Origin: Chitinophagaceae bacterium UBA1930
GTDB taxonomy: Bacteria; Bacteroidota; Bacteroidia; Chitinophagales; Chitinophagaceae
Direction: 5' to 3'
DNA length: 64,000 nucleotides
Assembly: GCA_002337145.1 (NCBI GenBank)
Contig: DDFK01000003.1
Coordinates: forward strand, 1-64,000
Below, in pieces: positions 15,969 to 36,660 of the stretch. The notes beneath the pieces were generated by a model, which made no database searches, was not told where the DNA came from, and worked only from the letters and a program-made list of their open reading frames with translations. Position 1 is the first letter of the stretch; each line of letters opens with the position of its first letter. The translations under genes were made by a program, and so were the position numbers.

Positions 15969-15969
15969 G

Positions 15970-19063: not shown

Positions 19064-19938
19064 GGTATATAGACAATAGCAGACTTGAGCAAGTAGCAAT
19101 TGATATTGGATGGGATGCCGTCAGGCAAAACCATATAAATAATATGGTTGGATTAAGCATAGCTGACAGAAAGGTCTATATAACAGATCATCCTGACTGG
19201 AATATGTTTCAGCCCCACATGCTTGCTCTTTCGCATAATAAATGTTGGTATTCTGAAGCTCCTATCGGAAATGGCGATTTTGAGGTGGATCATTTTCGGC
19301 CTAAAAATAAATCGAAACAGAAAATTGACTACACTAATACCAAGAGCAAATCTGTCGTTCACAAGGAAAATGGTTATTGGTGGAAGGCATATGATTGGGA
19401 TAATTATAGATTGGCTGGAGCATTGGCGAACAAACTCAGAAGGGATCGTCTTGGTGACTGTGAAGACGTAAAAGGAAAAGGAGATTATTTCCCTCTTGAT
19501 CTGGCATTGGGCCGAGTTGCAAATGACGAAGAAAATTTAACTTGTGAAGAACCTGTATTATTAGACCCCACAAATCCGGTAGATGTGTCCCTTCTCACTT
19601 TCGACAAAGGAATTCCTATTCCCGCGACGACAGACGATGAGGAAATAGATAGAGTTAAGCAATCGATATTTTATTATCACCTCGACTTGGATCAGCTTAA
19701 TACTGCAAGAAAAATAGTTTGGGATGATTGTGTAGCCCAAATAAAGGATGTTAAGAAAAATATAGACAATTCTGCACCAGCAGTGAAAAAAGCAATGATA
19801 AGGAAGTGCTTTGAAGAGTTAATTAAATTGGTGGATTCCGAAAGAAAATCATATACGAGCACTGCAAAAGCGTGTATGATGGTCTATTCAGAACTTGATG
19901 GATATTCCTGGTTAAAAAATTTAGTAAGAACGTTATGA
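19060..19938 (+). CDS. ptuB: HNH endonuclease, Septu PtuB-like
   Basis: HNH motif CWYSEAPIGNGDFEVDHFRPK. 292 aa. Translationally coupled to the ATPase (4-bp overlap) and to hsdM downstream. Confidence 0.5.
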   Translation: MRYIDNSRLEQVAIDIGWDAVRQNHINNMVGLSIADRKVYITDHPDWNMFQPHMLALSHNKCWYSEAPIGNGDFEVDHFRPKNKSKQKIDYTNTKSKSVVHKENGYWWKAYDWDNYRLAGALANKLRRDRLGDCEDVKGKGDYFPLDLALGRVANDEENLTCEEPVLLDPTNPVDVSLLTFDKGIPIPATTDDEEIDRVKQSIFYYHLDLDQLNTARKIVWDDCVAQIKDVKKNIDNSAPAVKKAMIRKCFEELIKLVDSERKSYTSTAKACMMVYSELDGYSWLKNLVRTL

Positions 19939-21368
19939 CAACAAACAACCTTGTACAGAAAATATGGTCATTTTGCGATACGTTGCGGGATGATGGCTTG
20001 GGATACAATGATTATCTTGAGCAGCTAACTTATCTGCTGTTTCTCAAAATGGCCGATGAGAATAAAAATAAATACAGCTTGCCGGACATCTGTGACTGGA
20101 AGAGCCTTGTAGCCAATAAAGGCGGGGAACTACTGGATCAGTATGAGAAAATATTGAAAACACTTGCAGATTCCGGCGGCATGTTAAAAAAGATTTTTTC
20201 AGGTGCACAAAATAAAATTCATGACTCATCAAAATTGCAGCGCCTTATTAATCTGATTGACGAAGAAAATTGGACATCCACAGGTTACGATATCAAAGGG
20301 GAAATTTACGAGTCACTGCTCCAAAAAAATGCTGAAAATAGTGGAGCTGGTCAATATTTTACTCCAAGATCCGTAATTCAAACCATAGTCGAATGTATAA
20401 AACCTCAGCCTTCAGAAACGATAGCAGATCCCTCCTGCGGCACAGGTGGCTTTTTTTTAGGCGCACTGGAATATTTAAATAGAAGTAAGCTGAGCCAAAC
20501 AGAACTAAAATTTATAAAGTTTGATACATTTCATGGATGGGAAATAGAAAAGGCAACAGCACGCCTTTGCTTAATGAATCTTTACTTGCATGGTGTAGGT
20601 GACCTGAAAAAGACACCTGATATACAGGTTACGGATAGCTTGAAAGCAAGCGACATTAAAAAAGTAAAAATAGTATTGGCTAATCCACCTTTTGGCAAGA
20701 GCAGTAGTGATATTCCTACGAACGACGCAAAAATGGCCGAAAAAGATGGATATTTTTTAAGAGAAGATTTCTGGGTAACAACAAGTAACAAGCAACTTGC
20801 TTTCTTACAACACATAGTGAATATGTTGGAGGATAATGGCCGTGCTGCCGTTGTTCTGCCAGATAATGTACTTTTTGAAGGAGGCGCTGGTGAAATAATC
20901 CGTCGCAAACTTCTCGAAGACGTTCATTTACATACTATTCTGCGATTGCCTACGGGTATTTTTTACGCCCAGGGAGTCAATGCCAATGTACTGTTCTTTG
21001 ATAAAAAGCAAGTTTCTAAAAAGACAAAAAAAGAAGTTTGGTTATACGACTACAGAACAAATATTCATCATACCCCTAAAAAGAATCCATTGTCCTTTAA
21101 CAGCCTATTGCCGTTCATTGAGTGTTATAACGAAAAGAAAAGGAAGGAAACATGGGGACAAGACAATCCACAAGGACGTTGGAAAAAATATAGCCATGAG
21201 GAGATATTAGCCAGAGATAAAGTAAATTTTGACATAACCTGGCTTAAAGATGGAAATTCAATTGATATGGATGCATTACCAGAACCAGATGTATTAATTG
21301 GTGAAATCATAGATAACTTAGAAATCGTACTCAACAACCTGAGAAATGTAAAGGATTCGGTGTCGTAA
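19935..21368 (+). CDS. hsdM: Type I restriction-modification N6-adenine DNA methyltransferase subunit
   Basis: Contains the LANPPFG (NPPF) catalytic motif and the SAM-binding DPSCGTGGF motif. The HsdM N-terminal domain is present. Confidence 0.9.
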   Translation: MTTNNLVQKIWSFCDTLRDDGLGYNDYLEQLTYLLFLKMADENKNKYSLPDICDWKSLVANKGGELLDQYEKILKTLADSGGMLKKIFSGAQNKIHDSSKLQRLINLIDEENWTSTGYDIKGEIYESLLQKNAENSGAGQYFTPRSVIQTIVECIKPQPSETIADPSCGTGGFFLGALEYLNRSKLSQTELKFIKFDTFHGWEIEKATARLCLMNLYLHGVGDLKKTPDIQVTDSLKASDIKKVKIVLANPPFGKSSSDIPTNDAKMAEKDGYFLREDFWVTTSNKQLAFLQHIVNMLEDNGRAAVVLPDNVLFEGGAGEIIRRKLLEDVHLHTILRLPTGIFYAQGVNANVLFFDKKQVSKKTKKEVWLYDYRTNIHHTPKKNPLSFNSLLPFIECYNEKKRKETWGQDNPQGRWKKYSHEEILARDKVNFDITWLKDGNSIDMDALPEPDVLIGEIIDNLEIVLNNLRNVKDSVS

Positions 21369-21373
21369 TCAAC

Positions 21374-23023
21374 ATGACTGAATATGAAAAAATAAGAGCG
21401 TTTGAATATGATGTTTTAGACCAGCATTATAAGAACTACTTATTTTATCAATATCCAGATGATATAGTAATCCCATATTTGTTGCAGACTTATGGAGATA
21501 CTGAAAGGCATAGAGACAATTTAGTTCGCACTGGCCATGATGAAACCAGCTTGTCTTTCTATTTGAACAATATGCTTCATGGTTTAGGCCATTGCATACG
21601 ATGGATGGTTAATAGTAATAGTTCAGAAATTAAAGAAGTCTCAAATCTCACATATAGGCAGATACATGAAATGGCTGCTGATTTTCTTGGCTGGGGAACG
21701 GGCTATCATATGATTGCGCAGGAATTTGTTACATGGTCACGCGGCATTAAGGAAGCGATGCTGGACGAGGATAAAAAAACTATTACATTTATTAATCCCA
21801 ATGGCTACGAGTACAGTAAAATCTACGGAAGCCAATTATTATATGCCAAAAGGATGGCAGCAATATTTAATAGCTATCCGCATGAAGAAATGGACAAAGA
21901 ATTCGGCGAATGGATTCGAGAAATAGATTTTACTAAGCCTCCAATAGTCAACCATATTAAATGGCAACGAGGAAGAAGTTCTGTATCATATCCTCTACTA
22001 TGTTTAAAGATGAGGGATTTACTATTCCCTGAATTGGCTGAAACAACAGACTTTCAAGGGTATAATCTCCAGCAGCTTCGTCAATTTTACGCCCTTGTTT
22101 TCCTAAATTTTCATTTCATTCGGTGGGTTGAAGCAGAATTAGATTCGCGTGCCGGGGATGATAATTTGTCTTTTGGTTCTAACCCTCTTGAACTGAACCA
22201 ACAACAGTTTGAAAAATTTATTTCAGATATTACAGGGCTTGCATTAGATGTGTCAAGAGCAATTATTGCCGATCTGACATTTGATCCTTCCAGTTTTCAT
22301 ACGAGCGTTAGCATTCAACCTTTTATTCGTTCGCTCTCTGGAAATTATCACATATTGCCCAACTTATTTGCACAGTTAGAACCTTCCAGAATGATTCTTG
22401 GTGCCTTAAATAAAGGGCCAAAGAAAAGGATATACGGTACTTTAATTAACACAATCGAAAAAGTAAACCTGAGCTTGCTATATGATTCAATTAGAGGTAT
22501 CGAAGGTAGTATTTGTTATCTCGAAAAGCAGATTAAACACAATGGGCAAACGATAACACCTGACCTAATACTGATAGATACTATAGAGAAGCTCTTATTG
22601 GTTGCCGATTACAAACATTTTATTGGCCCTATAACAGCTTCTGAAGTTGATTATAAGATGAGGGAACTTGAAAAAGCCATCAATCAGGTGACAAAATATA
22701 TTGAACATCTTTCCCTGTTCCCGAAGGTTGATTTACTAAATATTGAGGGGTTCTCCGTTGTTGGGCTGATCATTACACACAAACTTTTGCCTGTTCTCAT
22801 TCCAAAAAAGGAATCAATTCCAATTGTTGATATGGAATCATTTATGGAGGATACTAACTTCATAATCCAAAATAATCAGCATTTACATGCTTTAGCACAG
22901 AAAGTACAGACAGATTCTGCGAAAGCTTCCGAAGTTGAGTTTAATGATTTTGAATCAGAAATTAATGTTAGTGATTGGATAATTAAGCGAGCTCAACATA
23001 AACTCAATTTAAAAAGAAAGTGA
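21374..23023 (+). CDS. Hypothetical protein with a C-terminal PD-(D/E)xK-like nuclease motif
   Basis: No recognisable N-terminal domain. Near the C-terminus, PDLILIDTIEKLLLVADYK gives PD-x15-DYK spacing as in restriction-endonuclease-fold proteins. Co-oriented with hsdM, 6 bp downstream of it. Confidence 0.4.
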   Translation: MTEYEKIRAFEYDVLDQHYKNYLFYQYPDDIVIPYLLQTYGDTERHRDNLVRTGHDETSLSFYLNNMLHGLGHCIRWMVNSNSSEIKEVSNLTYRQIHEMAADFLGWGTGYHMIAQEFVTWSRGIKEAMLDEDKKTITFINPNGYEYSKIYGSQLLYAKRMAAIFNSYPHEEMDKEFGEWIREIDFTKPPIVNHIKWQRGRSSVSYPLLCLKMRDLLFPELAETTDFQGYNLQQLRQFYALVFLNFHFIRWVEAELDSRAGDDNLSFGSNPLELNQQQFEKFISDITGLALDVSRAIIADLTFDPSSFHTSVSIQPFIRSLSGNYHILPNLFAQLEPSRMILGALNKGPKKRIYGTLINTIEKVNLSLLYDSIRGIEGSICYLEKQIKHNGQTITPDLILIDTIEKLLLVADYKHFIGPITASEVDYKMRELEKAINQVTKYIEHLSLFPKVDLLNIEGFSVVGLIITHKLLPVLIPKKESIPIVDMESFMEDTNFIIQNNQHLHALAQKVQTDSAKASEVEFNDFESEINVSDWIIKRAQHKLNLKRK

Positions 23024-23090: not shown

Positions 23091-26000
23091 ATGAATGGTC
23101 AATTAAATCGCTCCGAGGAGGTACGAAAGGCAAAAGAGGAATCTGAAAGGTCAGATTTGAAGCAACATGCCGATAAAATGCTTCGTGATTTTGAAAAGTT
23201 CAATGACTTTTCTTCAAACAGAGCAATCTGGGAACTGGTTCAGAACGCCTGTGATTTAACCGTACATTGTGAGGTTACCATAGACTATAGATACAATAAA
23301 TTCTTGTTCACTCATAATGGACGGGCATTTAATTCTAATTCGCTTATTTCCCTCGTTAAGCAAGTGTCAGGCGATAAGGACGAGAATAGTGAAATACCAC
23401 CAGTAGGTAAATATGGCACCGGTTTTCTAACTACTCATTCTCTGGGCAGAAAATTTATTATCAATTCAATTTTGCAATCTTCTTCAGGACATTTTATTGA
23501 AATAAACGATTTTCTCATAGATAGAAGTCCTAAAAAATGGGAAGAATTAAGTGAGCAGATCAGGTTACAGAAAGATCGAGTTTTTGAGATCATAGATAAA
23601 ACCGGAAAAATTATTGAGCATCCTGAGCAGCGGACAACTTTTACATACTTTCCGGAGACTGAACAAGAGATAAAGTACGTTGCTGAATCCTATCGCGACC
23701 TCGAAGAGTACGTTCCAATAGTCATAACTATAAATAGCAGGCTTAAGTCTGTTAAAGTAATTTCGCCTGATGGCGATGTGACTGATTTTACCATGTCCAG
23801 CAAACAAGAAATACCGAATGAAGCAGGCATTAAACTCTATAAAACGTCAATCAAGAAAAATGGTGAGGATAAGGTCATATACTCAATTGCAGAACCTGAC
23901 AATGAAATCGAAATTATCTTACCCATAGATAAGGATCTAACCCTATTCGATTTGCCCAAGCGGGTTGCAAGGTTGTTCCTTTACTATCCTTTGATTGGTA
24001 CGGAAGGCTTCGGCATTAATTTCATCATTAACTGTAATCAATTCCTGCCAACGGAACCAAGAGATGGAATACATCTTAACAGCAACAAGGATCAGGTTAA
24101 AGATCAGGAAGAGGCAAACAAGCTTTTGATAGACAAAGCCTCTGAACTTCTATTTAGATTCCTAAATAGCAATATCCTGGTGGTGAAAAACCCATTGCTG
24201 TACGCCAACATTAATTTCAAACGAACAACTGACAATGTTCTGCTGAATAAATATTTTGTTGACCTACAGGAAAAATGGGTAAGCCATTTTAAGAATCTTG
24301 AAATAGTTGAGACTAAAACAGGCCACAAGAAGGTTGCGGAGGTCACCTTTCTTGACCCAGAGTTATTGGGTAAAGAAGAATATTTCGATTGTATATACTA
24401 CTTATTTGATAAATTCTATACTGACATTCCTTCTCAGGGGACAATTAAGTACTGGAGCCTTTTTGTAAATAAATGGGAATATTCTGAAGCTACTTTCATA
24501 AGCAACGATGATATAACGAAACAAATACAAGAATGTTCCCTAACTGATTTTGATGACCGGCTGCTTAAAAAATACTACGGATATTTGTTAGGCGAAAGGC
24601 ATACCGATCTTTTCACGGAAAATAGATTGTTGCCAAACATAGACGGCGAATTTCAGTATCTGAACAACTTAAAGCAACCTCGTGATTTGGATAGCCAATT
24701 GGTAAATGTTGGCAAAACTCTTATTGCCGACGCAATATCTCAACTGGTCAACAAAGATTTCTCTTTTGATTTCAAATTTGATACTTATGGAAGAAAAGAC
24801 TTTACAAATAGTGTTAATGCAAAGTTGAGCAATGAATTTATCGACAATTGCATTTGCTTACCGGAGGTCTACAACACTGATGATTACATCACAGATGTGG
24901 AAGTCAATTCGGCCCTTTTGGATAGGAACTACTTTTTAGCGGTTCTGAACTTTTGTAAACTACAAAACAATATTAATTCACATAGCAAGCCCTCAAAGTT
25001 GATGGGGCTAATAAGCGACTATTACCATATTGATAATAGGCTTGTACATATTGAACCTGTAAGTAATAAGGAAGATGATATTGATATACGACAGGCTCAA
25101 AAAAATCTTGTAAGGGTATTCTTCAGTACGTTGGCCAAGCATACTCAAGTATGGATTAAAAACAATACAGCGTTACTACTTGAAATTGCACTTTATAATG
25201 AAGACCGATATAAAGATGTTTATTCAACATCAAAAATATATCCAAACCAGCTTTACAAGCTTTGCTATCTTGCAGAATTGAAGAAGGCGATCAACCTTGA
25301 TGATTATATAATCGACTTGTATAACAGGACATCTGGTAAAACCATTGAAGGGTCACTCGTTGAGACCAATTTCAATGAGTTCCTTGTTGAAAATGAAACG
25401 GTAATGAATAAAACTCTGTCAAGCGCAATTGAAGAAGTTTTCTTCGAGACAGACATCCGTGATATCAATGAACACCCTTTTAAAGAAGATATCCTGATTA
25501 TTATAGCAAAATTAAACACAGTTACTTACAAAGAGCTTTTCCCTCGCTTAGACGATAAAAAGGCAAACTTAATGTTGGATATTGTCACTAACGAAAATAC
25601 CAAAGATGATATTTTTGCAATCGTGACTTTGAAAGAAGAACAACTAAAGAAACTTGGAAAAATTGTTCAATCACCCAACTTTGAAGAAATACTCTCTAAA
25701 GCTGAAGATGCAATAAGATTAGAAAAGGAAAGAAGATCCGACTTTGAACACAAATATAAAATAGGAACCTACATTGAAGACAAAATACGCGAAAAGCTTG
25801 GAGTCGCTATTTCATCCAAGCTTCTGGTAGATAAGGATAAAGAGATAGGTGCGGAAGATGTTCAAGGGGGGCAGGATATTATAATATCCTATGATGAAAC
25901 TGCGCTATATTTTATAGAGGTAAAATCAAGATGGGATTCCAGGAATTCAGTTTCAATGAGTAAGTTACAATTGGAAAGGGCTTCCGAGAATGTTGACAGG

Positions 26001-26294
26001 TATTCTCTCGTGTCAGTGGATGTTACTAAGTATAAGGGTACAAATGACAGATATGAGCTTCCGTTAAATGAAATAATCCCCTTAATAAAAGTGGTTGATA
26101 AAATTGGGCAAAATGTCCATCCGCTGATTACTAACAATCTTGTTGCTGAACGTGACCTGTCTTCTGCTGTCAAACTGATTGATTATAGAGGTATTGTTAA
26201 CCAAGATTTCATTAATGCGGGTACTGATTTTGACACTTTCTTGGATACTTTAATAGAATATTTGAAACTTGCTGTATCTAATATGAAACCCTAA
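23091..26294 (+). CDS. GHKL (Hsp90/MORC-type HATPase) plus C-terminal DUF3883-like nuclease domain protein (NO VEIN-like)
   Basis: Bergerat-fold motifs WELVQNACD (motif I), THNGRAF (motif II) and GKYGTGF (motif III). A C-terminal DIIISYDETALYFIEVKSRWD segment fits D..E.K of DUF3883/PD-(D/E)xK. There is no Walker A motif and no helicase motif, so this is not HsdR. Confidence 0.55.
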   Translation: MNGQLNRSEEVRKAKEESERSDLKQHADKMLRDFEKFNDFSSNRAIWELVQNACDLTVHCEVTIDYRYNKFLFTHNGRAFNSNSLISLVKQVSGDKDENSEIPPVGKYGTGFLTTHSLGRKFIINSILQSSSGHFIEINDFLIDRSPKKWEELSEQIRLQKDRVFEIIDKTGKIIEHPEQRTTFTYFPETEQEIKYVAESYRDLEEYVPIVITINSRLKSVKVISPDGDVTDFTMSSKQEIPNEAGIKLYKTSIKKNGEDKVIYSIAEPDNEIEIILPIDKDLTLFDLPKRVARLFLYYPLIGTEGFGINFIINCNQFLPTEPRDGIHLNSNKDQVKDQEEANKLLIDKASELLFRFLNSNILVVKNPLLYANINFKRTTDNVLLNKYFVDLQEKWVSHFKNLEIVETKTGHKKVAEVTFLDPELLGKEEYFDCIYYLFDKFYTDIPSQGTIKYWSLFVNKWEYSEATFISNDDITKQIQECSLTDFDDRLLKKYYGYLLGERHTDLFTENRLLPNIDGEFQYLNNLKQPRDLDSQLVNVGKTLIADAISQLVNKDFSFDFKFDTYGRKDFTNSVNAKLSNEFIDNCICLPEVYNTDDYITDVEVNSALLDRNYFLAVLNFCKLQNNINSHSKPSKLMGLISDYYHIDNRLVHIEPVSNKEDDIDIRQAQKNLVRVFFSTLAKHTQVWIKNNTALLLEIALYNEDRYKDVYSTSKIYPNQLYKLCYLAELKKAINLDDYIIDLYNRTSGKTIEGSLVETNFNEFLVENETVMNKTLSSAIEEVFFETDIRDINEHPFKEDILIIIAKLNTVTYKELFPRLDDKKANLMLDIVTNENTKDDIFAIVTLKEEQLKKLGKIVQSPNFEEILSKAEDAIRLEKERRSDFEHKYKIGTYIEDKIREKLGVAISSKLLVDKDKEIGAEDVQGGQDIIISYDETALYFIEVKSRWDSRNSVSMSKLQLERASENVDRYSLVSVDVTKYKGTNDRYELPLNEIIPLIKVVDKIGQNVHPLITNNLVAERDLSSAVKLIDYRGIVNQDFINAGTDFDTFLDTLIEYLKLAVSNMKP

Positions 26295-26491: not shown

Positions 26492-26577
26492 GGAGCGTTG
26501 ACCGAAACGGTAAGGTACTGGTATGCTAAACCAAGGTTGGGGTAACACCCAAGTAAGTTCGATTCTTACACGCTCCG
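26492..26577 (+). tRNA. tRNA-Ser (anticodon GCU), class II with a long variable arm
   Basis: Acceptor ggagcgt/acgctcc forms 7 perfect base pairs. U8 is present. 3-bp D-stem acc/ggt with a loop containing GG. Anticodon stem tggt/acca with loop atGCTaa (U33, A37). Variable stem gggt-aac-accc. T-arm gtaag-ttcgatt-cttac. Discriminator g. No encoded CCA. Confidence 0.65.
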
Positions 26578-26611
26578 CTTACACCCTCTCCTTTAAGAGG
26601 GGTTGGGGAGA

Positions 26612-26687
26612 GGTGCTTTGGCAGAGATGGTTCTACTTGCATTACTCTGAAGAAGTAATTATCTGAGTTCGATTCTCAGGGGCACCA
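26612..26687 (+). tRNA. tRNA-like sequence, possibly tRNA-Phe(GAA) or a pseudo-tRNA
   Basis: Acceptor ggtgctt/gggcacc has 5 Watson-Crick and 2 G-U pairs. Perfect anticodon stem ttact/agtaa with loop cuGAAga. Perfect T-arm ctgag-ttcgatt-ctcag. The D-loop is 12 nt (atypical). The 5' part overlaps a hairpin cctctcc...ggagagg. Total length 76 nt. Confidence 0.35.
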
Positions 26688-26909
26688 CATTATATAACAA
26701 CCAAAAAACACAGCTATGCGTGTACTTGTAATGAAATAGTTGATACCACAATTCAACTATACATATTAACCATTATTAAGAAAAAGCTGATGTAGCCAGC
26801 TGCATTGCTGCTATTGAGCACCGGTTGCGTCGCACCCATCAACACCTTATTGTTTATTGGGCAACACACAATCAACATCACTTTACACAATAGTACAAAC
26901 CAAAACAAC

Positions 26910-28076
26910 ATGATACCAATTATAATACTCATCGTACTTGCAAGGCTTATTGTTGCTGCATTTCCGGCAATGAGGCAAGCATTTCAATTACAATGGCAAA
27001 GAATAAAACAAGCATTGAAAAAAAGAAAAATGGTGGGTCTGTTCGACGAACACTTTATTGAAGCCAAAGCTTTTTATTTCAAGGAATTTAAAACCATTCC
27101 GTGTATTGCCTACATAGGTGGTGTAAACACAGGTGAAATTTTTAAGCTGATTCAAGAAGGCAAATACGGCAAGGTAGAAGCAACCTATCAACGCAACTAT
27201 TACAACTGGCAACAGGAACGGATAGAGTTTGCCAAAACCATCTTTAAACTGGAAAACAACATGATGGTAAAGCTGGGTGACGATTGGTTGGAAATATTGT
27301 TTAGCAACAAAGATTACGACAAGGCCAACAATATGCTGCACGAGTTCAAAACATTGAAAGCTCCGCAAAAGGAAGATGATTACGAGATCAACATCATATC
27401 CCGAAGCGGCGGCTCATTGGATCTTAAGACACTTGCAATAAAGCCCACACCATTGGATCTGGACCTTTATTACAATAATGATTTCAAGGCAGTAGATGCC
27501 ACCATTAAAGAAAGGTTACTGAAAGCAAACGACAAAGGCATTGTATTGCTGCACGGCCTGCCCGGTACCGGTAAAACAACCTACCTAAGACACTTGATCG
27601 GCAATATGAAAAAGCAGGTAATGTTTGTATCGCCCAGCGTAGCCGACAACTTGATGAACCCGGAGTTTATGGATCTATTGATAGATAACCCAAACTCCAT
27701 ACTGGTAATTGAAGATGCAGAGAACATTATCATGGACAGAAGGTTCAGCAGCCAAAGTAGCGTAAGCAACCTGCTGAACATAAGCGATGGTTTACTGAGC
27801 GACTGTTTGAACGTACAGATCATCTGCACATTTAACAGTGACCTGAACATGGTAGACAGTGCCCTGCTACGCAAAGGAAGGTTGATAGCCAAGTACGAGT
27901 TTGGCAAACTGCATGTAAGCAAAGCAAGGGCATTGAGCCAGCACTTAGGCTTGCAGCAAGAGATAAACAAACCCATGACTTTGGCAGAGATCACCAACCC
28001 GGGCGAAACCCATTACCAACCTAAACAGGTAAACGTAATTGGCTTTAGAAGAATGGAAGAATTGATTGAAAACTAA
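26910..28076 (+). CDS. AAA+ ATPase with an N-terminal transmembrane anchor
   Basis: Walker A LLHGLPGTGKTTYL, Walker B ILVIEDAEN, and a sensor/arginine finger in DSALLRKGRL. A hydrophobic N-terminus (MIPIIILIVLARLIVAAF) is present if the start is at 26910. The ORF extends to 26805, but that extension covers a repeated 17-mer and looks non-coding. Confidence 0.7.
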   Translation: MIPIIILIVLARLIVAAFPAMRQAFQLQWQRIKQALKKRKMVGLFDEHFIEAKAFYFKEFKTIPCIAYIGGVNTGEIFKLIQEGKYGKVEATYQRNYYNWQQERIEFAKTIFKLENNMMVKLGDDWLEILFSNKDYDKANNMLHEFKTLKAPQKEDDYEINIISRSGGSLDLKTLAIKPTPLDLDLYYNNDFKAVDATIKERLLKANDKGIVLLHGLPGTGKTTYLRHLIGNMKKQVMFVSPSVADNLMNPEFMDLLIDNPNSILVIEDAENIIMDRRFSSQSSVSNLLNISDGLLSDCLNVQIICTFNSDLNMVDSALLRKGRLIAKYEFGKLHVSKARALSQHLGLQQEINKPMTLAEITNPGETHYQPKQVNVIGFRRMEELIEN

Positions 28077-28604: not shown

Positions 28605-28831
28605 AATACCGGATGGTTCACACTCTTGGCATGAGCCACTCTTTTAAAATATGGTTGCTGTAAATAGCAACACAAAAGCTTGCCCAACGGCAAGAAGGGT
28701 TTATTACATAACAGCACAAACCAGATGCGAGTTTACAAAGCTCCGTAGTACAGACGTAATAACTATCTGTATGCTATTGAATGTTATGGATAGGTCCTCC
28801 ATCCGCCAATGTCTCAAAAACAATGGCCTTT

Positions 28832-28910
28832 AGTCACAGGTTCGAATCCTGTTCCATCTGTATAAGATGGATAGTTCAGCGGTAGAACACTACACTGTCA
28901 CTGTAGAAAA
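28832..28910 (+). ncRNA. Circularly permuted tRNA-Asp-like element
   Basis: The T-arm acagg-ttcgaat-cctgt plus the 3' acceptor strand tccatct-g are followed by a 4-nt linker (tata). Then come the 5' acceptor strand agatgga (7 of 7 pairs with tccatct), U8-A9, D-arm gttc-agcggta-gaac, and the anticodon arm ctaca-ctGTCac-tgtag (anticodon GUC, U33, A37). This is the 3' portion placed before the 5' portion. Confidence 0.35.
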
Positions 28911-29218
28911 GAAGGAGACCATCGCTCCTTTATCAAATGATGACCAGGTAACAAAAGCAGGTGCACTGAATCGGCAGCTTTTATACGTCTTAGCAGAGGA
29001 TAGTAAAAGCCGCAACAATTCAATCGGCACTTTGCAAGAAGCAAACAACAATGCAGCATGTATGGCTTTTACTGCAATCGTTTACTGAAGATACATCAGT
29101 AAGCAATTAAGGAACAACCCCTGCACTACGTATTGTATCCATCTTCTTCCGTAATGGTAGAATGATTCAATGCAACTGCTTTTACATTTTTAATGAACAA
29201 AAAACAAAACAAACTATT

Positions 29219-30316
29219 ATGAAAAACATAAACATTAACGCCTACCAAGTAGGTTTGGTTTTTAAGAAAGGTGTGTACCAACGCATGTTACAAGAAGGTA
29301 GCTATTGGTTGTGGAACGAACAGGTAATTGTATACGACAAATTCAAACCATTTGACCCATCAGTTGATTTGGGCGTCTTTTTGCAGGATGCCGAATTGGC
29401 CAATGCATTGCATGTGGTAGATGTTATGGACAATGAGATTGTGTTGATGTACGAGAACAACCTGTTGAAACAAGTATTGCAGGCTGGCCGTTATGCATTC
29501 TGGAAAACCTCTACAGACTTGCGTTTCGTAAAAGCCGACATCAGCAAAATTGATATTGACCAAAGCATTGCACCAAATACTTTGACCAACAAATTGGTAG
29601 TTGGTTATGTACGTACCTCTACAGTTGAAAGCTACGAGAAAGCATTGCTGTTTGTAGATGGTAAATACCAGCACATTTTGGATAGCGGTGTATATTACTG
29701 GTGGAAGAACAATACCATTGTTACAGTGGGTAAAGTGGATATGCGTCAGCAACAAATCGAGATCAATGGCCAGGAGATTTTGACCAAAGACAAAGCTGCT
29801 TTGCGTATCAATGCCTTTGCACAGTACAAAGTAGTTGATATTGAGAAAGCCTTGTTGCAAAACAAAGAGTACGACAAACAATTGTACGTTGCTTTCCAAC
29901 TGGCTTTGCGTGAGTACATTGGCAGCATGGGCTTTGACGAGCTGTTGGAAAAGAAAGATACCATTGCCGCTTTTGTACAGGAACGTGTAAACAGCAATGC
30001 CGCAGCATTGGGTATTGAAGTGGCCGGTTTCGGTATCCGTGACATCATATTGCCTGGCGATGTAAAAGACATCATGAACCAGGTATTGGTAGCGGAGAAG
30101 AAAGCACAAGCCAACACCATCATGCGTAGGGAAGAAACAGCGAGTACCCGTAGCCTGTTGAACACAGCCAAACTGATGGAAGAAAACGCCATGTTGTGGA
30201 AGCTGAAAGAAATGGAATACGTGGAAAAGATTGCCGACAAGATCAGCAACATCAGTGTTAACGGAAACGGTGACCTGGTGGGTCAGTTGAAGCAGATCTT
30301 TGTACCCCAGAAATAA
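29219..30316 (+). CDS. SPFH/band-7 (slipin-family) protein
   Basis: C-terminal half matches the SPFH/prohibitin core (ILTKDKAALRINAFAQYKVVDIEKAL ... GIEVAGFGIRDIILPGDVKDIMNQVLVAEKKAQAN). Start assigned to MKNININAYQ; the upstream ORF extension is probably non-coding. Confidence 0.8.
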   Translation: MKNININAYQVGLVFKKGVYQRMLQEGSYWLWNEQVIVYDKFKPFDPSVDLGVFLQDAELANALHVVDVMDNEIVLMYENNLLKQVLQAGRYAFWKTSTDLRFVKADISKIDIDQSIAPNTLTNKLVVGYVRTSTVESYEKALLFVDGKYQHILDSGVYYWWKNNTIVTVGKVDMRQQQIEINGQEILTKDKAALRINAFAQYKVVDIEKALLQNKEYDKQLYVAFQLALREYIGSMGFDELLEKKDTIAAFVQERVNSNAAALGIEVAGFGIRDIILPGDVKDIMNQVLVAEKKAQANTIMRREETASTRSLLNTAKLMEENAMLWKLKEMEYVEKIADKISNISVNGNGDLVGQLKQIFVPQK

Positions 30317-30352: not shown

Positions 30353-30496
30353 AATAAGTGCTGATGAACGTTCCGAACGTTGATGGGTGCGACGCAACAG
30401 GCGATGCCATGAAACACTGCAGCCCGTTACATAAAAACAACAACAAGAACAAAGCATCATTGCTACTCATAGCAATGATGCATCAACCAAACAACA

Positions 30497-31933
30497 ATGA
30501 GCAAATTAAAAATAACAGCCAAAGAGCTGCGGACAATCGGTTACCCCGAAAGCCCGGTAATTCCTGTTGCCATGAATGCAATGGAAAAACATTATAAACA
30601 CAACACAAAGGAGGAAGTAATGGGGATTTTAAAAGCGGTGCTGGCATCTCCTATTGAATACAAGAATGATGCAGTACTTGGAATGATAGCAGAAAAGCTA
30701 TTGCCCAAAGAAGATGTAGGTGAACCGGAAATTTCATTGAACAATACAGGCGTTCACTTCAACACTTTTGGTGCGGAACATATTGAGCAGGGTGCATTCC
30801 ATCAAATGTACAGTGCGGTTAAACTGCCCATTGCTGTTGCAGGTGCATTGATGCCCGATGCACACCACGGTTATGGACTGCCAATTGGCGGCGTGTTGGC
30901 AACAGACAATGCAGTGATACCCTATGGCGTTGGTGTGGATATTGGTTGCCGCATGTGCTTGAGCATTTTTGATATTGATGCCAAAGAGCTGACAAACAGG
31001 GAGCAATATTTTGCAAGGGAGATAAACGAAGCAACCTTATTTGGTAGCGGTGCCATGTTTAAACAGGCAGATGACCATGAAGTGATGGAGAACGAAGCAT
31101 TCTTTAGTACACCCTTGCTGAAAGGCTTGCATGGCAGGGCCTGGAAGCAGTTGGGCACTTCTGGAAGCGGTAACCACTTTGTGGAATTTGGTGCCGTGAC
31201 CATTACGGAGAAAGACGAAATACTGGGCGTTGAACCTGGTAACTATATAGGTTTGCTGAGCCACTCTGGCAGCAGGTCTTTGGGTGCAAGGATTGCAGAG
31301 CATTACACCAAAATTGCTATCAGCAAAAGGCGTTTGCCACAAGATGCAAAGAACCTTGCATGGTTGAACATGAACGAAGAAGCAGGCATGGAATATTGGA
31401 TTGCCATGAATTTGGCAGGCGATTATGCGAGTGCATGCCACCATATCATTCATGCAAAGATTGCAAAACAGTTGGGCCGCAAACCAATGAAAGTGGTAGA
31501 GAACCACCACAACTTTGCATGGAAGGAAATGCTGGATGGCAAGGAAGTAATTGTGCACCGTAAAGGGGCCACGCCTGCCGGTAAAAATGTGTTGGGCATC
31601 ATTCCCGGTAGCATGACCGCTGATGGCTTTATTGTGAAAGGCAAAGGTGAAGTAGCGTCTATTAATTCTGCAAGCCACGGTGCGGGTAGAAAGATGAGCC
31701 GTACACAGGCCTTGGCCAACATAACACACAATGCATTGAAAGATGAATTGGCAAAGTTTGGCGTTAAGTTGTTGGGTGGTGGTTTGGACGAAGCCCCGTT
31801 TGCTTATAAAGACATTAACGAAGTAATGCAATCGCAAACTGCATTGGTGGATGTGGTGGGCAAGTTCACACCAAAGATTGTGAAGATGGATGGCACGCAA
31901 CCGAAACAATGGAAGAAAGGGAAGCCTGAATAA
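30497..31933 (+). CDS. rtcB: RNA-splicing ligase RtcB (3'-phosphate/5'-hydroxyl RNA ligase)
   Basis: Metal-binding and GMP-histidine motifs are present: MPDAHHGYGLPIGGV, GVDIGCRM, GSGNHF, LSHSGSR, VENHHNFAW, IIPGSM and SASHGAGRKMSR. Alignable to E. coli-type RtcB from memory. Carries an N-terminal extension of ~60 aa; start uncertain. Confidence 0.9.
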   Translation: MSKLKITAKELRTIGYPESPVIPVAMNAMEKHYKHNTKEEVMGILKAVLASPIEYKNDAVLGMIAEKLLPKEDVGEPEISLNNTGVHFNTFGAEHIEQGAFHQMYSAVKLPIAVAGALMPDAHHGYGLPIGGVLATDNAVIPYGVGVDIGCRMCLSIFDIDAKELTNREQYFAREINEATLFGSGAMFKQADDHEVMENEAFFSTPLLKGLHGRAWKQLGTSGSGNHFVEFGAVTITEKDEILGVEPGNYIGLLSHSGSRSLGARIAEHYTKIAISKRRLPQDAKNLAWLNMNEEAGMEYWIAMNLAGDYASACHHIIHAKIAKQLGRKPMKVVENHHNFAWKEMLDGKEVIVHRKGATPAGKNVLGIIPGSMTADGFIVKGKGEVASINSASHGAGRKMSRTQALANITHNALKDELAKFGVKLLGGGLDEAPFAYKDINEVMQSQTALVDVVGKFTPKIVKMDGTQPKQWKKGKPE

Positions 31934-31957
31934 TTTTAAATAGCAAGCTTTGAACAG

Positions 31958-31992
31958 GCCCCTGTTGCTATATAGCAGCAGGGGTTTTTGTT
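31958..31992 (+). terminator. Rho-independent terminator after rtcB
   Basis: gcccctgttgc-tatata-gcagcagggg followed by ttttt. Confidence 0.55.
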
Positions 31993-32067: not shown

Positions 32068-35000
32068 ATGAAAAAAATACTACTGCTTGTATTCTTTGCA
32101 ATGGCAGGCTTAGCTGCATACACACAATCATTCTTGGACCTGAACAACCAGTTTATGGAACTGTACCAAAAGGGGCAGTACAAAGAAGCACTGGGCATTG
32201 GTTCAAAAGCAATGATACAGGCAAAAAAGGAATATGGCGAACAGCACATCAACTATGCCATTGCAGTGCACAACCTTGCCGAATGCCATTATGCATTGCA
32301 GGCATGGAAGCAGGCACTGCCCCTATACCATCAGGCCGTAAAGGTTTATACCATTGCACAAAAAACAACAGCTACAACCGAGGTTGCCTTATGCAACAAC
32401 AATATTGGCAACATTTACCTTGTACAAAAAAAATACGATTCATCTGCCATCTTTTTCGAGCAGTCATTTGAATTTTTTATTACCAACATAGATGAGCAAT
32501 ACAACAATGCCATAGGTGTAATGAACAACCTCACTTCATTATACATTCCCTTAAAAATGTACACCGCCGCCGTAAACGTGTACAACAAGATACTACCAAC
32601 AATAGAAACTAAAGAAGGCATAACAAGCGAAAACTACAATGCTACCAATACCAATCTCATATCATCCTTACATGGACTTTCAGCATACAAAAAAGCAGTG
32701 GCCTGTTTAGGTATGAAACGTGCAGGTCTTGTCAAGACCAAAGGGACAGCATCTGCTGAACTGGCCCTCTGCGACAACGAGATTGGCAACGACTACCTGA
32801 TACTGGAGCAATATGATTCTGCCAGCGTTTACTTTGAGCAATCCTTTAGCTACTTTATTGCACATGCCAATGAACAATATGAAAATGCCATTGTATTATC
32901 CAACAACCTCTATGCCCTGTACACTACAACCGACAAGAACAAAGAGATATGCTCGGTATTTGAAAAGATAGTACCCGTTATCATTGCCAAAGAAGGCAAG
33001 GGCAACCAAAATTATATAACGGCAATAACCAATTGGGGCACTTCCTTATACCTACTAAACCAATATGCTACGGCCGAAAAATACATGCGTGAAATTGTAG
33101 CATATTACGAAAGCAATAAGAAGGACAATTCAACGGCCTATGCCGATGTATTATGCATACTCGCAAAGTCTTTAAGGAAACAGGAGAAGCTAGACGAGGC
33201 ATTCCTATGTTATAACAAGGCAAACAAAGTGTACAATACCGTCTATAAAACAGAGAACAACGATAATACCGCTATCAACTTAAACAATATGGGCGACATC
33301 CTGCTAAGCCAGGACAAGTTCGATTCTTCTGCCACTTGTTTCGAAAAAGCATTTACTTATTTCCTCCGCAAGCCCAACGAAAAATACGAGACACTTGTAT
33401 TGATCATGCACAACCTATCGGATCTATACATACCCATTGGCAAATACAAAGAAGCAAAAACAGTTTTTGAAAAAATGCTGCCTGTTATTGAACGTGTGGA
33501 AGGCAAGGAGTTTAAAGAAAATTATACATATGCCATTTTCAATCTAGGTTCGGCATTGTACTATTTGCAGGACTATGCATTAAGTGAAACCTATGCACGC
33601 AAAGGCCTTGCAGGTATTGAAAAAATAAAGGGCAAAAACAATACGGACTATACCGATTTTTTGGACATGCTTGCCAATAACCTAAACGAGCAAAGCAAGT
33701 TTGAAGAAACAGAACAGGTATTGACACAATCCTTGCAGATAAAAAAATCCCTGCCCAAACAAGACAGCCTTAACCTGGCAATAAGCTATGGCGGTTTTGG
33801 CAACCTGTATTCCTCATCGGGCAACTATAAAAAATCGTTTGAATATTTTGATACGGCCATTAATTTACTAACCGCTTCGGGGCATGAAGACGATGCAGAC
33901 TATGTGGTATTACTACGCAATTTTGGCTATGCCTATATTGAAGGGGGGCGTTTGTTGGAAGCAAAAAAAACATTGTCAAAAGCACTGGCCATACAGGAAA
34001 AGCTATATGGGAAAAATTACCCCGTTAATGGTGAGTTACTCATTTCCATAAGCAATGCCGAAGTACAACTGAACGAACTGACGGATGCCGAAGAGCATGT
34101 GCAGCAAGGGCTGGATGTAGTGCTGGCAGCCTATGGCGAAAATTATTATACAGCGGCAAAGGCAAAAGAAGTAATGGCAATGATTAACCAAAAAAGGGGC
34201 AACAACACCCGGGCCATTACCTTATACAAAGAAGCATTGGCCATTAACACAAAAATATTTGGCGAAGAAAGCAAGCATACTGCATCGGCCTTTTCCAACC
34301 TCGGTACGGTATATGAAGAGATAGGCAACTTTGCCGAAGCAGAACCCTTTCTTCAAAAATCGGCTGACATAAGAAAAAAGATCTATGGCGACAACCACCC
34401 CGATTATGCCATAAGCCTTAGCAACTTGGCCCTGCTATATATTTATGAAAACAAGTACAAAGAAGCAGACGACATACTGATTAAAGCACTTAACATCTAT
34501 ACAAAAAGCGGACTGGAAGAAACCAACAACTTCATGTCCATCATTAACAATATTGCTTTTATGGCCGCAAGGCAGGGCCTGTTGGATCAAGCGAAAAAAA
34601 TATACTTACAATTACTTACCATACTTGAATCAAAGGGAGACAGAAGAAGCTCTGCCTACTATTTGGTATTGAACAATATTGCAGCCAATTGCATTAGCCA
34701 AGAAAACTATGACGATGCCATTACCTACGGCTTAAAAGCTGTAGCATACGCAAAAAAATACCAAGGCATTAAAACATTGGAGTACATTAAATCTACCAAC
34801 AACTGCCTGGTAGCCTATAAAGGAAAAGGCGATTACGAAAAAGCATACCAATTGGCAAAAGAGTTGCTTCCGCTTTGCAAAGAAGTAATGGGCAATGAGG
34901 CTGCCCTTACCGGAACAGTCTACTCCAATATTGCATTGCTCGAAAATCAGCGGAACAATCCCGAACAGGCATTTGATTATTTGAACAAAAGCCTGCAGAT

Positions 35001-36660
35001 TTCTATGGATGCATTCAGGAAGAATTTTTATACGCTAAGCGAAAAAGAAAAACTCAATTGGTGGGATGGCGAATCTGCATCCTTTGCCTTTTTTCCTTCG
35101 TTACTGATAGAACATCCAGCATTGGCAGCAACAGCAACCGGCTACCTCACCAATATACAGATGCAACTGAAGAATTTTATCCTAAACGATGCATCGGCCA
35201 CTTTACGCAAAGCCAGAACCAGCAATAATGCAGCATTAAACAAGATATTGGACAAATGGCAACTCAATAGGTCCATCATTAGCAAACAGCTGTCCATGCC
35301 TGTTACAGAACGCATCTATAAAACAGACAGCATTGAAGCAGTAGCCAATGAATTGGAAAAAAGCATTAACCAACAGGCTGCCGGTCTCATTAAAATAAAC
35401 CAGCAAAACGATATTACCTGGCAGGCCGTTCAGTCATCCTTAAAAGAAGGCGAAGCCGCAGTGGAGTTCATCAGCTTTCCATTTTACCGCCAATCAAAAT
35501 TTACCGATACCATTCAATATGCAGCCATTGTTATACGCAAAAATGAAGCACCCAAATTTGTGCCGCTTGCCACAGAAAAGCAGGTCAATTGGTGCCTTAC
35601 AGGTGGCAAGGTAAACAGCAAGGAAACACGCATCAATAGTTTGTACAGAAGCTCTATAAAAAGTGGCAGCAACGAAACCTTTGCTGGCGACAGTTTATAC
35701 AACATCATCTGGAAGCCACTTATACCCTACCTGCAAAACATCAGTACGGTTTCCTACTCGCCAGATGACTTATTGCATAAGGTAGCATTTCATGCACTGC
35801 CAATGGGCAAAGACAAATTGTTGCTGGATGCATACCGCTTGCAGCAATACACCAGCATAAGACAGCTTACCGAAAAAGCAAACGAAACAACCAAATGGAA
35901 TGCTGCCTACCTAATGGGCAATGCCGATTTTAATACCCTGCCAGTAAAAGCATCGGCTGAAACGATTGCCACAGGCAGCTTTACCAGCAACCACAACAAC
36001 GAAGCGTGGGTGCCCCTACCGGGTACCGAAAAAGAAATCAATACGCTGCAACCGTTACTGGTTTCAAAAGGTGCAACTGTTACAGCTACAAGTGGTATCA
36101 ATGCTACCGAAGAAAAATTCAAGTTGCTCAACAACCATTCGCCAGCGTTGATACACTTGGCCACGCATGGCTTTTTTCTACCCAACCTTCAACTAAAGAA
36201 AAGCTTGGGTACTGTTGACAATGCTGCCAATAACTATGCCTTGTCCGACGATCCATTAATGCGTAGCGGTGTTATCATGGCGGGTGCAAACAAAGCATGG
36301 AGCGGGCAAAAGATACCATCCAATACAGAAGACGGTATTGTTACTGCTTATGAAATTGCCCAATTGAATTTGACTGGTACAAAACTGATTGTATTGAGTG
36401 CCTGCGAAACGGCACTGGGCGATTTGCAGGGAACTGAAGGCGTGTTTGGCTTGCAGCGAGCCTTTAAAATTGCCGGTGTAAAAAATTTGATCGTAAGTCT
36501 TTGGCAAGTGCCCGACAAGGAAACAGCAGAACTGATGGGTATTTTTTACAGTAACCTGTTAAGTGGATTGCCTGTTAGGGATGCTTTCTATAAAGCACAA
36601 AAAGAAATGCGGGGCAAGTATCCACCTTATTCATGGGCAGCCTTTGTGTTGATTGAATAA
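32068..36660 (+). CDS. Giant secreted TPR-repeat protein with a C-terminal CHAT (caspase-like) protease domain
   Basis: Signal peptide MKKILLLVFFAMAGLAAYTQ. About 1100 aa of TPR-like repeats (recurring YNNLG.LY, A..Y.KAL motifs). The C-terminal CHAT domain has the catalytic dyad context: HLATHGFF (His) and LIVLSACETALGD (Cys). Confidence 0.8.
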   Translation: MKKILLLVFFAMAGLAAYTQSFLDLNNQFMELYQKGQYKEALGIGSKAMIQAKKEYGEQHINYAIAVHNLAECHYALQAWKQALPLYHQAVKVYTIAQKTTATTEVALCNNNIGNIYLVQKKYDSSAIFFEQSFEFFITNIDEQYNNAIGVMNNLTSLYIPLKMYTAAVNVYNKILPTIETKEGITSENYNATNTNLISSLHGLSAYKKAVACLGMKRAGLVKTKGTASAELALCDNEIGNDYLILEQYDSASVYFEQSFSYFIAHANEQYENAIVLSNNLYALYTTTDKNKEICSVFEKIVPVIIAKEGKGNQNYITAITNWGTSLYLLNQYATAEKYMREIVAYYESNKKDNSTAYADVLCILAKSLRKQEKLDEAFLCYNKANKVYNTVYKTENNDNTAINLNNMGDILLSQDKFDSSATCFEKAFTYFLRKPNEKYETLVLIMHNLSDLYIPIGKYKEAKTVFEKMLPVIERVEGKEFKENYTYAIFNLGSALYYLQDYALSETYARKGLAGIEKIKGKNNTDYTDFLDMLANNLNEQSKFEETEQVLTQSLQIKKSLPKQDSLNLAISYGGFGNLYSSSGNYKKSFEYFDTAINLLTASGHEDDADYVVLLRNFGYAYIEGGRLLEAKKTLSKALAIQEKLYGKNYPVNGELLISISNAEVQLNELTDAEEHVQQGLDVVLAAYGENYYTAAKAKEVMAMINQKRGNNTRAITLYKEALAINTKIFGEESKHTASAFSNLGTVYEEIGNFAEAEPFLQKSADIRKKIYGDNHPDYAISLSNLALLYIYENKYKEADDILIKALNIYTKSGLEETNNFMSIINNIAFMAARQGLLDQAKKIYLQLLTILESKGDRRSSAYYLVLNNIAANCISQENYDDAITYGLKAVAYAKKYQGIKTLEYIKSTNNCLVAYKGKGDYEKAYQLAKELLPLCKEVMGNEAALTGTVYSNIALLENQRNNPEQAFDYLNKSLQISMDAFRKNFYTLSEKEKLNWWDGESASFAFFPSLLIEHPALAATATGYLTNIQMQLKNFILNDASATLRKARTSNNAALNKILDKWQLNRSIISKQLSMPVTERIYKTDSIEAVANELEKSINQQAAGLIKINQQNDITWQAVQSSLKEGEAAVEFISFPFYRQSKFTDTIQYAAIVIRKNEAPKFVPLATEKQVNWCLTGGKVNSKETRINSLYRSSIKSGSNETFAGDSLYNIIWKPLIPYLQNISTVSYSPDDLLHKVAFHALPMGKDKLLLDAYRLQQYTSIRQLTEKANETTKWNAAYLMGNADFNTLPVKASAETIATGSFTSNHNNEAWVPLPGTEKEINTLQPLLVSKGATVTATSGINATEEKFKLLNNHSPALIHLATHGFFLPNLQLKKSLGTVDNAANNYALSDDPLMRSGVIMAGANKAWSGQKIPSNTEDGIVTAYEIAQLNLTGTKLIVLSACETALGDLQGTEGVFGLQRAFKIAGVKNLIVSLWQVPDKETAELMGIFYSNLLSGLPVRDAFYKAQKEMRGKYPPYSWAAFVLIE

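Follow-up and report, generated by a model that had tools for sequence, protein, structure and literature searches.

What kind of molecule is encoded when all the parts of a transfer RNA (tRNA) stand side by side in the wrong order? The question is raised by a short element at positions 28829–28906 of a 64,000-nucleotide (nt) stretch of contig DDFK01000003.1 from Chitinophagaceae bacterium UBA1930, in which the 3′ half of a tRNA precedes the 5′ half in the spacer between a DUF458 gene and a gene for a slipin, a protein of the SPFH/Band-7 family. The whole stretch is referred to as the window, and all window coordinates are on the plus strand unless stated. A preliminary description of this DNA favored a permuted tRNA gene matured through a circular intermediate, and it named a Y-RNA-like tRNA mimic and a scar of recombination at a tRNA attachment site as alternatives. 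Our analyses favor, with a probability of about 0.6, a reading in which the element is the closed-ended tRNA-mimic domain of a large slipin-associated RNA, of the same class as YrlA and the band 7-associated tRNA, and not a gene for a translating tRNA.

Anatomy of the tRNA-Like Element

The preliminary description was accurate as to anatomy: every module of a tRNA is present and complementary, with the 3′ half before the 5′ half, and all of them can be located in the sequence. The element consists of a remnant of a variable loop (UUUAGUC, 28829–28835, with C48 at 28835, just 5′ of the T stem), a T arm (ACAGG-TTCGAAT-CCTGT, 28836–28852), an acceptor-like hairpin (TCCATCT-GTATA-AGATGGA, 28853–28871), U8-A9 (28872–28873), a D arm (GTTC-AGCGGTA-GAAC, 28874–28888), A26 (28889), and an anticodon-like arm of 5 base pairs (bp) and 7 nt that reads GUC (CTACA-CTGTCAC-TGTAG, 28890–28906). 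The T arm, U8-A9, and A26 were read from the sequence, and the pairs of the T stem, the D stem, and the anticodon-like helix covary among homologs. The acceptor-like hairpin has seven pairs in the window and a closed end without CCA; the G and 4-nt linker previously placed between the acceptor strands are its 5-nt loop (G plus TATA).

ARAGORN calls no tRNA at the element in its genomic order and only tRNA-Ser(GCU) and tRNA-Phe(GAA) in the window. When positions 28866–28910 are joined in silico to positions 28833–28861, the same program calls a tRNA-Asp(gtc) with a 74-nt cloverleaf, a discriminator G, and the nucleotides G73, G10, and C38. There is no transfer-messenger RNA in the window by ARAGORN, and no Rfam match to one. 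In a sensitive search of 1 kilobase (kb), the best Rfam match is YrlA (28809–28924, 39.9 bits, E = 4e-7), with a score below the Rfam gathering score of 69. Two covariance models, R1 (T arm, acceptor hairpin, and D arm) and R2 (the same parts plus the anticodon arm), each have a single match in the 64 kb of the window, at 67.4 bits for R1 and 74.8 bits for R2 (28831–28907); since the window element is contained in both seed alignments, these two scores are partly a matter of construction. The folding energy of the element segment lies at z = −3.05 relative to shuffled sequences.

Conservation and Covariation

Relatives of the window slipin number more than 7000, and 80 slipin-centered genomic loci, mostly from Chitinophagaceae and with slipin identities of 64–78% to that of the window, were taken for comparison. 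R2 finds exactly one strong match per locus in 68 of the 80 loci and in the window, ~400 nt upstream of slipin, and the strong R1 matches in related loci are likewise confined to the spacer. Pairing was assessed over these 68 loci and the window for R2 and over 150 modules for R1, with shuffled sequences, slid partners, and cross-locus partners as controls. In the R2 alignment, 95.3% of cells are paired, whereas shuffled sequences give 67% and slid partners about 40%, and in the R1 alignment 95.9% are paired, compared with 69% and 37–53%, respectively; these percentages lean high, as each alignment was made to fit its model and a single phylum supplied the loci, but they are accompanied by many different types of compensatory pair. 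Compensatory changes are found in 15 of the 16 R1 pairs, including all seven of the acceptor hairpin, and in 19 of the 21 R2 pairs, so that the examination of covariation in homologous spacers, suggested in the preliminary description, gave a strongly positive result. The anticodon-like helix is 99.7% paired in the R2 alignment and covaries at five of five pairs. The acceptor hairpin has only 5–7 pairs across loci, as the two loop-proximal pairs are often unpaired or absent among homologs, and its loop ranges from 3 to 12 nt.

The nucleotides that make tertiary contacts in tRNA are retained as well. The T loop reads TTCGA-T without exception in 71 sequences; across homologs, A14 never varies and U8, G18/G19, and A21 hardly vary, while at the Levitt pair 15:48, 91 of the 150 modules have G:C and 42 have A:U (G15 and C48 in the window). 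As judged from these alignments, the invariant T loop, G18/G19, and the covarying 15:48 pair show that the predicted fold has a tRNA-like elbow.

The anticodon-like loop combines a constant frame with a variable center. C32, U33, a purine at position 37 (R37), and A38 are conserved, and nucleotides 34–36 are hypervariable between homologs (entropy of 1.5–1.7 bits), with GUU, GAU, NAG, GUG, GUA, GUC, and other triplets in loops that resemble those of genuine tRNAs (e.g., CUGUUAA, CUGAUAA, CUNAGGA, and CUGUCAC). GUN, the type of anticodon that receives queuosine, accounts for ~30% of the anticodon-like loops. The anticodon-like arms are not copies of those of the tRNAs encoded in arrays upstream of the spacer (at most 15 of 17 positions identical), and the triplet bears no relation to the array of its own locus, where it is present in 13 of 33 loci compared with 41% in cross-locus comparisons. 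A search for a fixed-position intramolecular (kissing) partner of the anticodon loop found none within the RNA. The possibility that the element is a copy of a genuine tRNA was also considered and rejected, there being no near copy among the 469 array tRNAs of the related loci.

A Predicted Structured RNA Fills the Spacer

The element is most likely embedded in a conserved structured RNA of ~550–600 nt (about 28640–29200) that fills the 614-nt spacer between DUF458 and slipin. The 5′ domain of this RNA (28639–28780), for which RNAalifold predicts 27 pairs across 63 loci, 19 of them with compensatory changes, begins with a conserved box, CTCTTTTAAAATA (28639–28651). It continues through hairpins at 28654–28671, 28679–28694, and 28725–28747 to a highly conserved hairpin box, GTACAGACGTAATAACTATCTGTATGCTATTG (28748–28779). 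The domain includes a nearly invariant box, CTGTATGCTGTTG, located ~500 nt ahead of the start of slipin in almost all loci. A stub hairpin (CCAATGT-CTCAAAA-ACAATGG, 28806–28826) precedes the tRNA-like element, and an H-type pseudoknot (28914–28942) follows it. The 3′ domain (28943–29218) extends to the slipin start and contains conserved boxes at 29143–29164 (CTTCTTCCGTAATGGTAGAATG) and 29174–29195; its motifs, TTCCGT..GGATGG..CCGGCTTTATTAAAA, are conserved across loci and reach to ~30 nt from the slipin start codon. Rfam 15 has no family for the RNA, and blastn against plasmids and phages gave no match.

The pseudoknot is formed by a hairpin (GGAG-ACCATCG-CTCC, 28914–28928), an A-rich tail, and the sequence TGATG (28938–28942), which pairs with the CATC(G) of the loop. 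The first stem occurs as GAAG/CTTC, GGAG/CTCC, or AAAG/CTTT. MAFFT was unable to align the 3′ strand of the pseudoknot, and a comparison of same-locus with cross-locus partners was used in its place: in 55 of 60 loci, a downstream stretch of 4 nt is exactly complementary to the core of the loop, compared with 4.7% across loci, and nine different cores are represented. With its first stem of 4 bp, loop of 7 nt, A-rich tail, and second stem of 4–5 bp, the layout resembles that of class I preQ1 riboswitch aptamers; no Rfam family matched it.

Most loci have two T-loop motifs, 57–72 nt apart and ~400–450 nt upstream of slipin, that mark tandem modules. Module 1 consists of a variable loop, a T arm, a closed acceptor-like hairpin, and a D arm, without an anticodon loop, and is closed by a short anticodon-stem-like helix formed by its flanks (4.3 of 5 pairs compared with 2.7 of 5 across loci, with many compensatory variants). 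Module 2 consists of a T arm, a closed hairpin, a D arm, and the complete 5-bp/7-nt anticodon-like arm. The window carries module 2 only, with the stub hairpin at the position that module 1 occupies in two-module relatives, and the same single-module form is found in three of the related loci (L002, L062, and L066). A third architecture is seen in four Chitinophaga loci (L055, L064, L067, and L077), in which module 1 alone is followed by different hairpins in a shorter spacer.

The pseudoknot hairpin occupies the position of the T arm in a normal-order tRNA, and it is this hairpin that serves as the "T arm" in a borderline match of the Rfam tRNA model to the window (28866–28935, 29.1 bits). 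We rejected the normal-order reading of this match and of similar matches in the relatives (29–41 bits), which needed the 5′ acceptor strand of module 1 to pair with the 3′ strand of module 2, a pairing no more frequent than chance (3.7 of 7 pairs compared with 3.5 of 7 in the control). Also rejected was the outer stem of the Rfam YrlA model in the window (GUCUC/GAGAC), which is not conserved and clashes with the stub hairpin and the pseudoknot.

The RNA lies directly upstream of slipin and on the same strand in the related loci. No terminator-like site was found on the plus strand of the spacer, so the RNA is probably cotranscribed with slipin and RtcB. A strong terminator-like hairpin (14 pairs and a T run, 31956–31987) follows RtcB and closes the unit.

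Relationship to YrlA and the Band 7-Associated tRNA

The YrlA RNAs (Rfam RF02553) are tRNA mimics in which a T arm, a closed acceptor stem-loop, and a D arm follow one another, with covariation at 15:48, and they are also defined by a motif near the 5′ end (GNCGAAN0-1G, the likely site of Ro60 binding), set in a stem that the two ends of the RNA form, and by a Ro60 gene within ~4 kb on the same strand (Chen et al. 2014, PMC4201824). Most have been likened to circularly permuted tRNAs whose acceptor stem is closed, and YrlA sometimes adjoins a Band-7 gene (bioRxiv 10.1101/312249). The window element shares with YrlA the order of T arm, acceptor-like stem-loop, and D arm together with the conserved elbow nucleotides, and the slipin-linked modules share the compensatory exchange of G15:C48 for A15:U48. 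Neither has a free CCA end and both are linked to RtcB, and module 1 of the two-module relatives, closed by its anticodon-stem-like helix, has the topology of YrlA.

The differences are also clear. The Ro motif is absent from the window spacer and occurs in 11 of 74 related loci, compared with 19% of shuffles, mostly within a T stem. No TROVE (Ro60) domain is encoded in the 64 kb of the window among the 36 open reading frames (ORFs) scanned for domains, which are nearly all of those longer than 150 amino acids (aa). The Rfam gathering score is missed in the window and in 11 related loci, and the window RNA has no long terminal stem. YrlA lacks the complete anticodon stem-loop of the window module, whose host RNA is ~550 nt long and often has tandem modules and a pseudoknot, compared with 80–220 nt for YrlA. 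The suggestion in the preliminary description of a Y-RNA-like tRNA mimic comes near the mark: it is supported by YrlA being the best Rfam match and by the YrlA-like topology, although the element departs from YrlA in the missing Ro motif, the missing Ro60 neighbor, and the Rfam threshold.

A second precedent is the "band 7-associated tRNA," predicted beside Band-7 and RtcB genes by Burroughs and Aravind in 2016, as cited in bioRxiv 10.1101/312249. As far as that citing text describes the prediction, the window offers the same combination of a tRNA-resembling RNA, a Band-7/SPFH gene, and an RtcB gene. What is already known thus comprises a YrlA-type tRNA mimic and a predicted band 7-associated tRNA; to these, the sequences compared here add a full anticodon arm, a predicted pseudoknot, tandem modules, and the context of a putative ~550-nt RNA.

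The anatomy of the RNA, taken with the proposals made for YrlA, suggests three candidate modes of action: it may serve RtcB and slipin as a scaffold, attract anticodon nucleases as a decoy or bait, or act in cis as a sensor. As a scaffold, the L-shaped domain would be a protein-binding handle that tethers repair factors that recognize tRNA, RtcB above all, to a soluble slipin scaffold. As a decoy, the exposed and variable anticodon loop would attract anticodon nucleases, and it has been proposed that YrlA's tRNA-like domain competitively inhibits an anticodon nuclease (PMC7790460). The cassette as a whole may protect or restore the tRNA pool under attack by RNA-cleaving toxins.

Several observations weigh against the assignment of the element to a tRNA-mimic domain of a slipin-associated RNA. 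The sampled loci all belong to one phylum (80 of 80 in Bacteroidota) and mostly to one family, and the fit of the alignments to the models somewhat inflates the pairing. The band 7-associated tRNA had not been validated according to the 2018 citing text (bioRxiv 10.1101/312249). The variable anticodon could be a mere lack of constraint and not the result of diversifying selection. The scaffold role would be drawn by analogy with Ro60 and Y RNA, yet the Ro-binding motif and the Ro60 gene are absent here. The pairing of the RNA with slipin is not strictly dependent on RtcB, since a related island of Escherichia coli, described below, has no RtcB. Finally, a leader position without a terminator fits a cis-regulatory role equally well.

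Alternative Explanations

Such a cis-regulatory role could be that of a sensor of the tRNA pool in the 5′ leader of the slipin-RtcB mRNA, which would refold when, for example, an invading anticodon nuclease cuts its anticodon loop or a tRNA-binding factor attaches to its tRNA-shaped domain, and would thereby turn on slipin and RtcB, after which RtcB could reseal the leader. The invariable position of the RNA directly upstream of slipin on the same strand is consistent with this explanation, as are the location of the only strong terminator-like site after RtcB, with none before slipin, and the presence of conserved boxes within ~100 nt of the slipin start codon. U33, R37, and A38 are kept while the triplet varies, as would be expected of a bait that faces diverse nucleases, and in Salmonella the rtcBA operon is controlled by damaged tRNAs through RtcR (PMC7790460). 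However, no alternative on/off pairing was found, nor any intramolecular partner of the anticodon loop, ~550 nt with many independently covarying domains far exceeds what known leaders need, and the window variant lacks one whole module, yet its 3′ region is not obviously changed. We consider this sensor unlikely. The scan of window ORFs brought up no regulator of the RtcR type.

Two further explanations take the order of the halves at face value. In the first, module 2 would be a real permuted tRNA precursor or a sacrificial bait that is cut at or near the anticodon arm and rejoined by the RtcB of the cassette, to give a circular or reordered tRNA-like molecule with a strain-specific anticodon. 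We give this proposal little credence; if it were true, it would be the first case of permuted-tRNA processing in bacteria and would provide a programmable decoy against anticodon nucleases.

The second, which was the leading idea of the preliminary description, is that of a true circularly permuted tRNA gene: the segment would be excised, its ends at 43/44 joined by RtcB, and RNase P and RNase Z would open the acceptor loop before the addition of CCA, to yield tRNA-Asp here and tRNAs of other identities elsewhere. The element does have the upstream 3′ half, the short insert that closes the acceptor stem, and all the cloverleaf parts that are found in permuted tRNA genes. The call of a tRNA-Asp(gtc) for the rejoined halves, with G73, G10, and C38, is in its favor, as is the retention of all tertiary-contact nucleotides. 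RtcB is the type of ligase expected to join the ends, and the RtcB gene that had been noted 1.6 kb downstream is indeed present at 30497–31933, in the same unit of the cassette. The acceptor hairpin of the window has the seven pairs of a tRNA, and the YrlA of Mycobacterium smegmatis, which has a 7-bp stem, is a precedent in that it can be cleaved by RNase P and can receive CCA (bioRxiv 10.1101/312249).

Nevertheless, we regard a permuted tRNA gene as highly improbable. The known examples, from Cyanidioschyzon, green algae, and Thermofilum, have a bulge-helix-bulge junction at 20/21, 37/38, 50/51, or 59/60 and rely on a splicing endonuclease (PMC3978253), whereas the break in the window lies at 43/44, which is none of the known sites. 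There is no splice junction motif, because the flanks form structures of their own, the conserved stub hairpin and the covarying pseudoknot, and no bulge-helix-bulge was seen, although no formal search for one was made. No bacterial splicing endonucleases have been described (bioRxiv 10.1101/312249), and none was seen among the 36 window ORFs scanned. Among the homologs, acceptor pairs 6–7 are often unpaired or missing and loops shrink to 3 nt, so that the stem varies between five and seven pairs; the base that follows the 3′ strand breaks the identity rules for the respective "anticodon" in the loci inspected; and the anticodon varies freely among close relatives, unrelated to the supply of the neighboring array. 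The partner module, module 1, has no anticodon loop, the module is set within a larger structured RNA in a bacterial host, and the cassette already has ordinary tRNA genes.

An inert remnant, either the decayed junction of two adjacent array tRNAs or the recombination scar suggested in the preliminary description, has almost no probability in our view: although R1 weakly matches (22–43 bits) the junctions of adjacent tRNAs in the upstream arrays, the pseudoknot hairpin lies at the place of a third T arm, and the island is part of a mobile element, the acceptor strands are complementary in every locus with covariation at seven of seven pairs, the cross pairing that ordinary tRNAs should show does not rise above chance, one copy stands at a fixed place in 68 loci, array tRNAs contain no near copies of either half, and the homologs, with slipin identities as low as 64%, are not recent identical copies. 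The same weak matches at array junctions make a tRNA dimer or trimer a plausible evolutionary source of the RNA, an origin that has also been proposed for YrlA (bioRxiv 10.1101/312249).

Gene Neighborhood of the RNA

The RNA is part of a cassette in which a tRNA array, an AAA ATPase gene, DUF458, the RNA, slipin, and RtcB follow in this order. Niastella caeni (L038), Chitinophaga arvensicola (L064), and Pinibacter aurantiacus (L043) are among the Chitinophagaceae isolates with this cassette. The arrays comprise up to 15 genes and lie 2–4 kb upstream of slipin in most of the 80 loci (L001–L080), with a recurrent order of Pro-Glu-Asp-Gln-His-Arg-Met-Ile-Val-Lys-Asn-Tyr-Ser-Ser-Cys-Phe-Trp that often ends in Ser-(Cys)-Phe(-Trp) and with a bias toward Phe, Lys, Asn, His, Asp, Arg(ACG), Ser(GCU), Ile, Gln, and Met. 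The tRNA-Ser(GCU) and tRNA-Phe(GAA) genes of the window (26492–26688), which ARAGORN calls and which score low with the Rfam tRNA model (46–47 bits), the latter with an enlarged D loop, are a short remnant of the array that heads the cassette in relatives.

The AAA ATPase gene (26805–28076; Pfam AAA, 1.9e-11) has relatives in 51 of the 80 loci, and the DUF458/RNaseH_like gene (PF04308; 28098–28604; 1e-36) in 55; in many loci the two genes stand in the opposite order. The N-terminal part of the ATPase has a strongly hydrophobic segment around residue 36 (Kyte-Doolittle value of 2.59), which suggests a membrane anchor. The slipin gene (29219–30316; Pfam Band_7, 3.6e-31) is present in all 80 loci, which were sampled by slipin, and its product has no predicted membrane helix (Kyte-Doolittle maximum of 1.34). 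RtcB (Pfam RtcB, 5.7e-81) is present in 57 of the 80 loci; contig ends cut many of the loci in which RtcB, DUF458, or the ATPase was not detected. In several loci (L001, L008, L021, L032, L034, L050, and others), RtcB lies 3–6 kb downstream of slipin and not 0.2 kb, with extra genes inserted between them. In the window, a 12-bp palindromic hairpin (30454–30481) lies between slipin and RtcB and is terminator-like on the minus strand only.

The cassette is flanked by TmtA of the Tiamat defense system (1067 aa, 23091–26294; PADLOC, E = 2.7e-282) and, downstream of the terminator-like hairpin, by a gene encoding a TPR-CHAT protein (32068–36660). TmtA and CHAT were found in none of the 80 related loci and are not conserved with the cassette. 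TmtA is preceded (14382–23023) by AbiEi/AbiEii, a type I restriction-modification system, and an AAA_21 ATPase, and these by a relaxase and a YWFCY coupling protein, which places the cassette in a defense island downstream of mobile-element genes. PADLOC has no family for the proteins of the cassette itself, and a search for slipin relatives in viral contigs found none.

TrcR jointly represses a tRNA array, rtcB, a slipin, and an AAA ATPase in Anabaena, where translational stress induces the array and rtcB (PMC10272220; PMC8421152). As presented in the passages of these papers on the genes concerned, the set of parts is the same as that joined here in one cassette. There the genes are scattered under a shared repressor, and those passages do not mention a tRNA-like RNA upstream of slipin.

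Distribution beyond Chitinophagaceae

Distant slipin genes (35–42% identity) also have a T arm and a closed hairpin upstream. One of these is in a record of the Bacillota Subdoligranulum variabile (L082; 28.6 bits), whose slipin is 42% identical to that of the window; the link between RNA and slipin therefore spans phyla. In this record (6640–6760), a pair of T-arm-like hairpins is accompanied by a closed acceptor-like hairpin and an element like a D arm, ~250–350 nt upstream of slipin. In E. coli, a spacer match of 18.1 bits comprises a T arm and a closed hairpin (TGGGTTCGATTCCCA, ATTCATT-cctga-AATGAAT). The E. coli island has the order yjbD, ~530-nt spacer, slipin, nucleotidyltransferase, zeta-toxin-family gene, and lysC and is found in 1632 of 5426 complete genomes; RtcB is absent from the island, and the spacer is unannotated in RefSeq genomes. 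The E. coli spacers compared here (L081, 6469–6997; L083, 4330–4858), between yjbD and lysC, have a CTTCCG box like that of the window RNA.

Implications

For annotation, the lesson is that the element is not a tRNA gene and should not be labeled as one. RtcB is widespread in bacteria, and its helpers and natural substrates there are poorly known. The cassette unites spare tRNA genes, an RNA ligase, a soluble slipin, two uncharacterized proteins, and a large RNA with one or two near-perfect tRNA shapes. With a related spacer in ~30% of complete E. coli genomes, this class of RNA is open to experiment, and a tRNA mimic with a changing anticodon triplet offers a testable handle on the old question of how cells sense or blunt attacks on their tRNAs.

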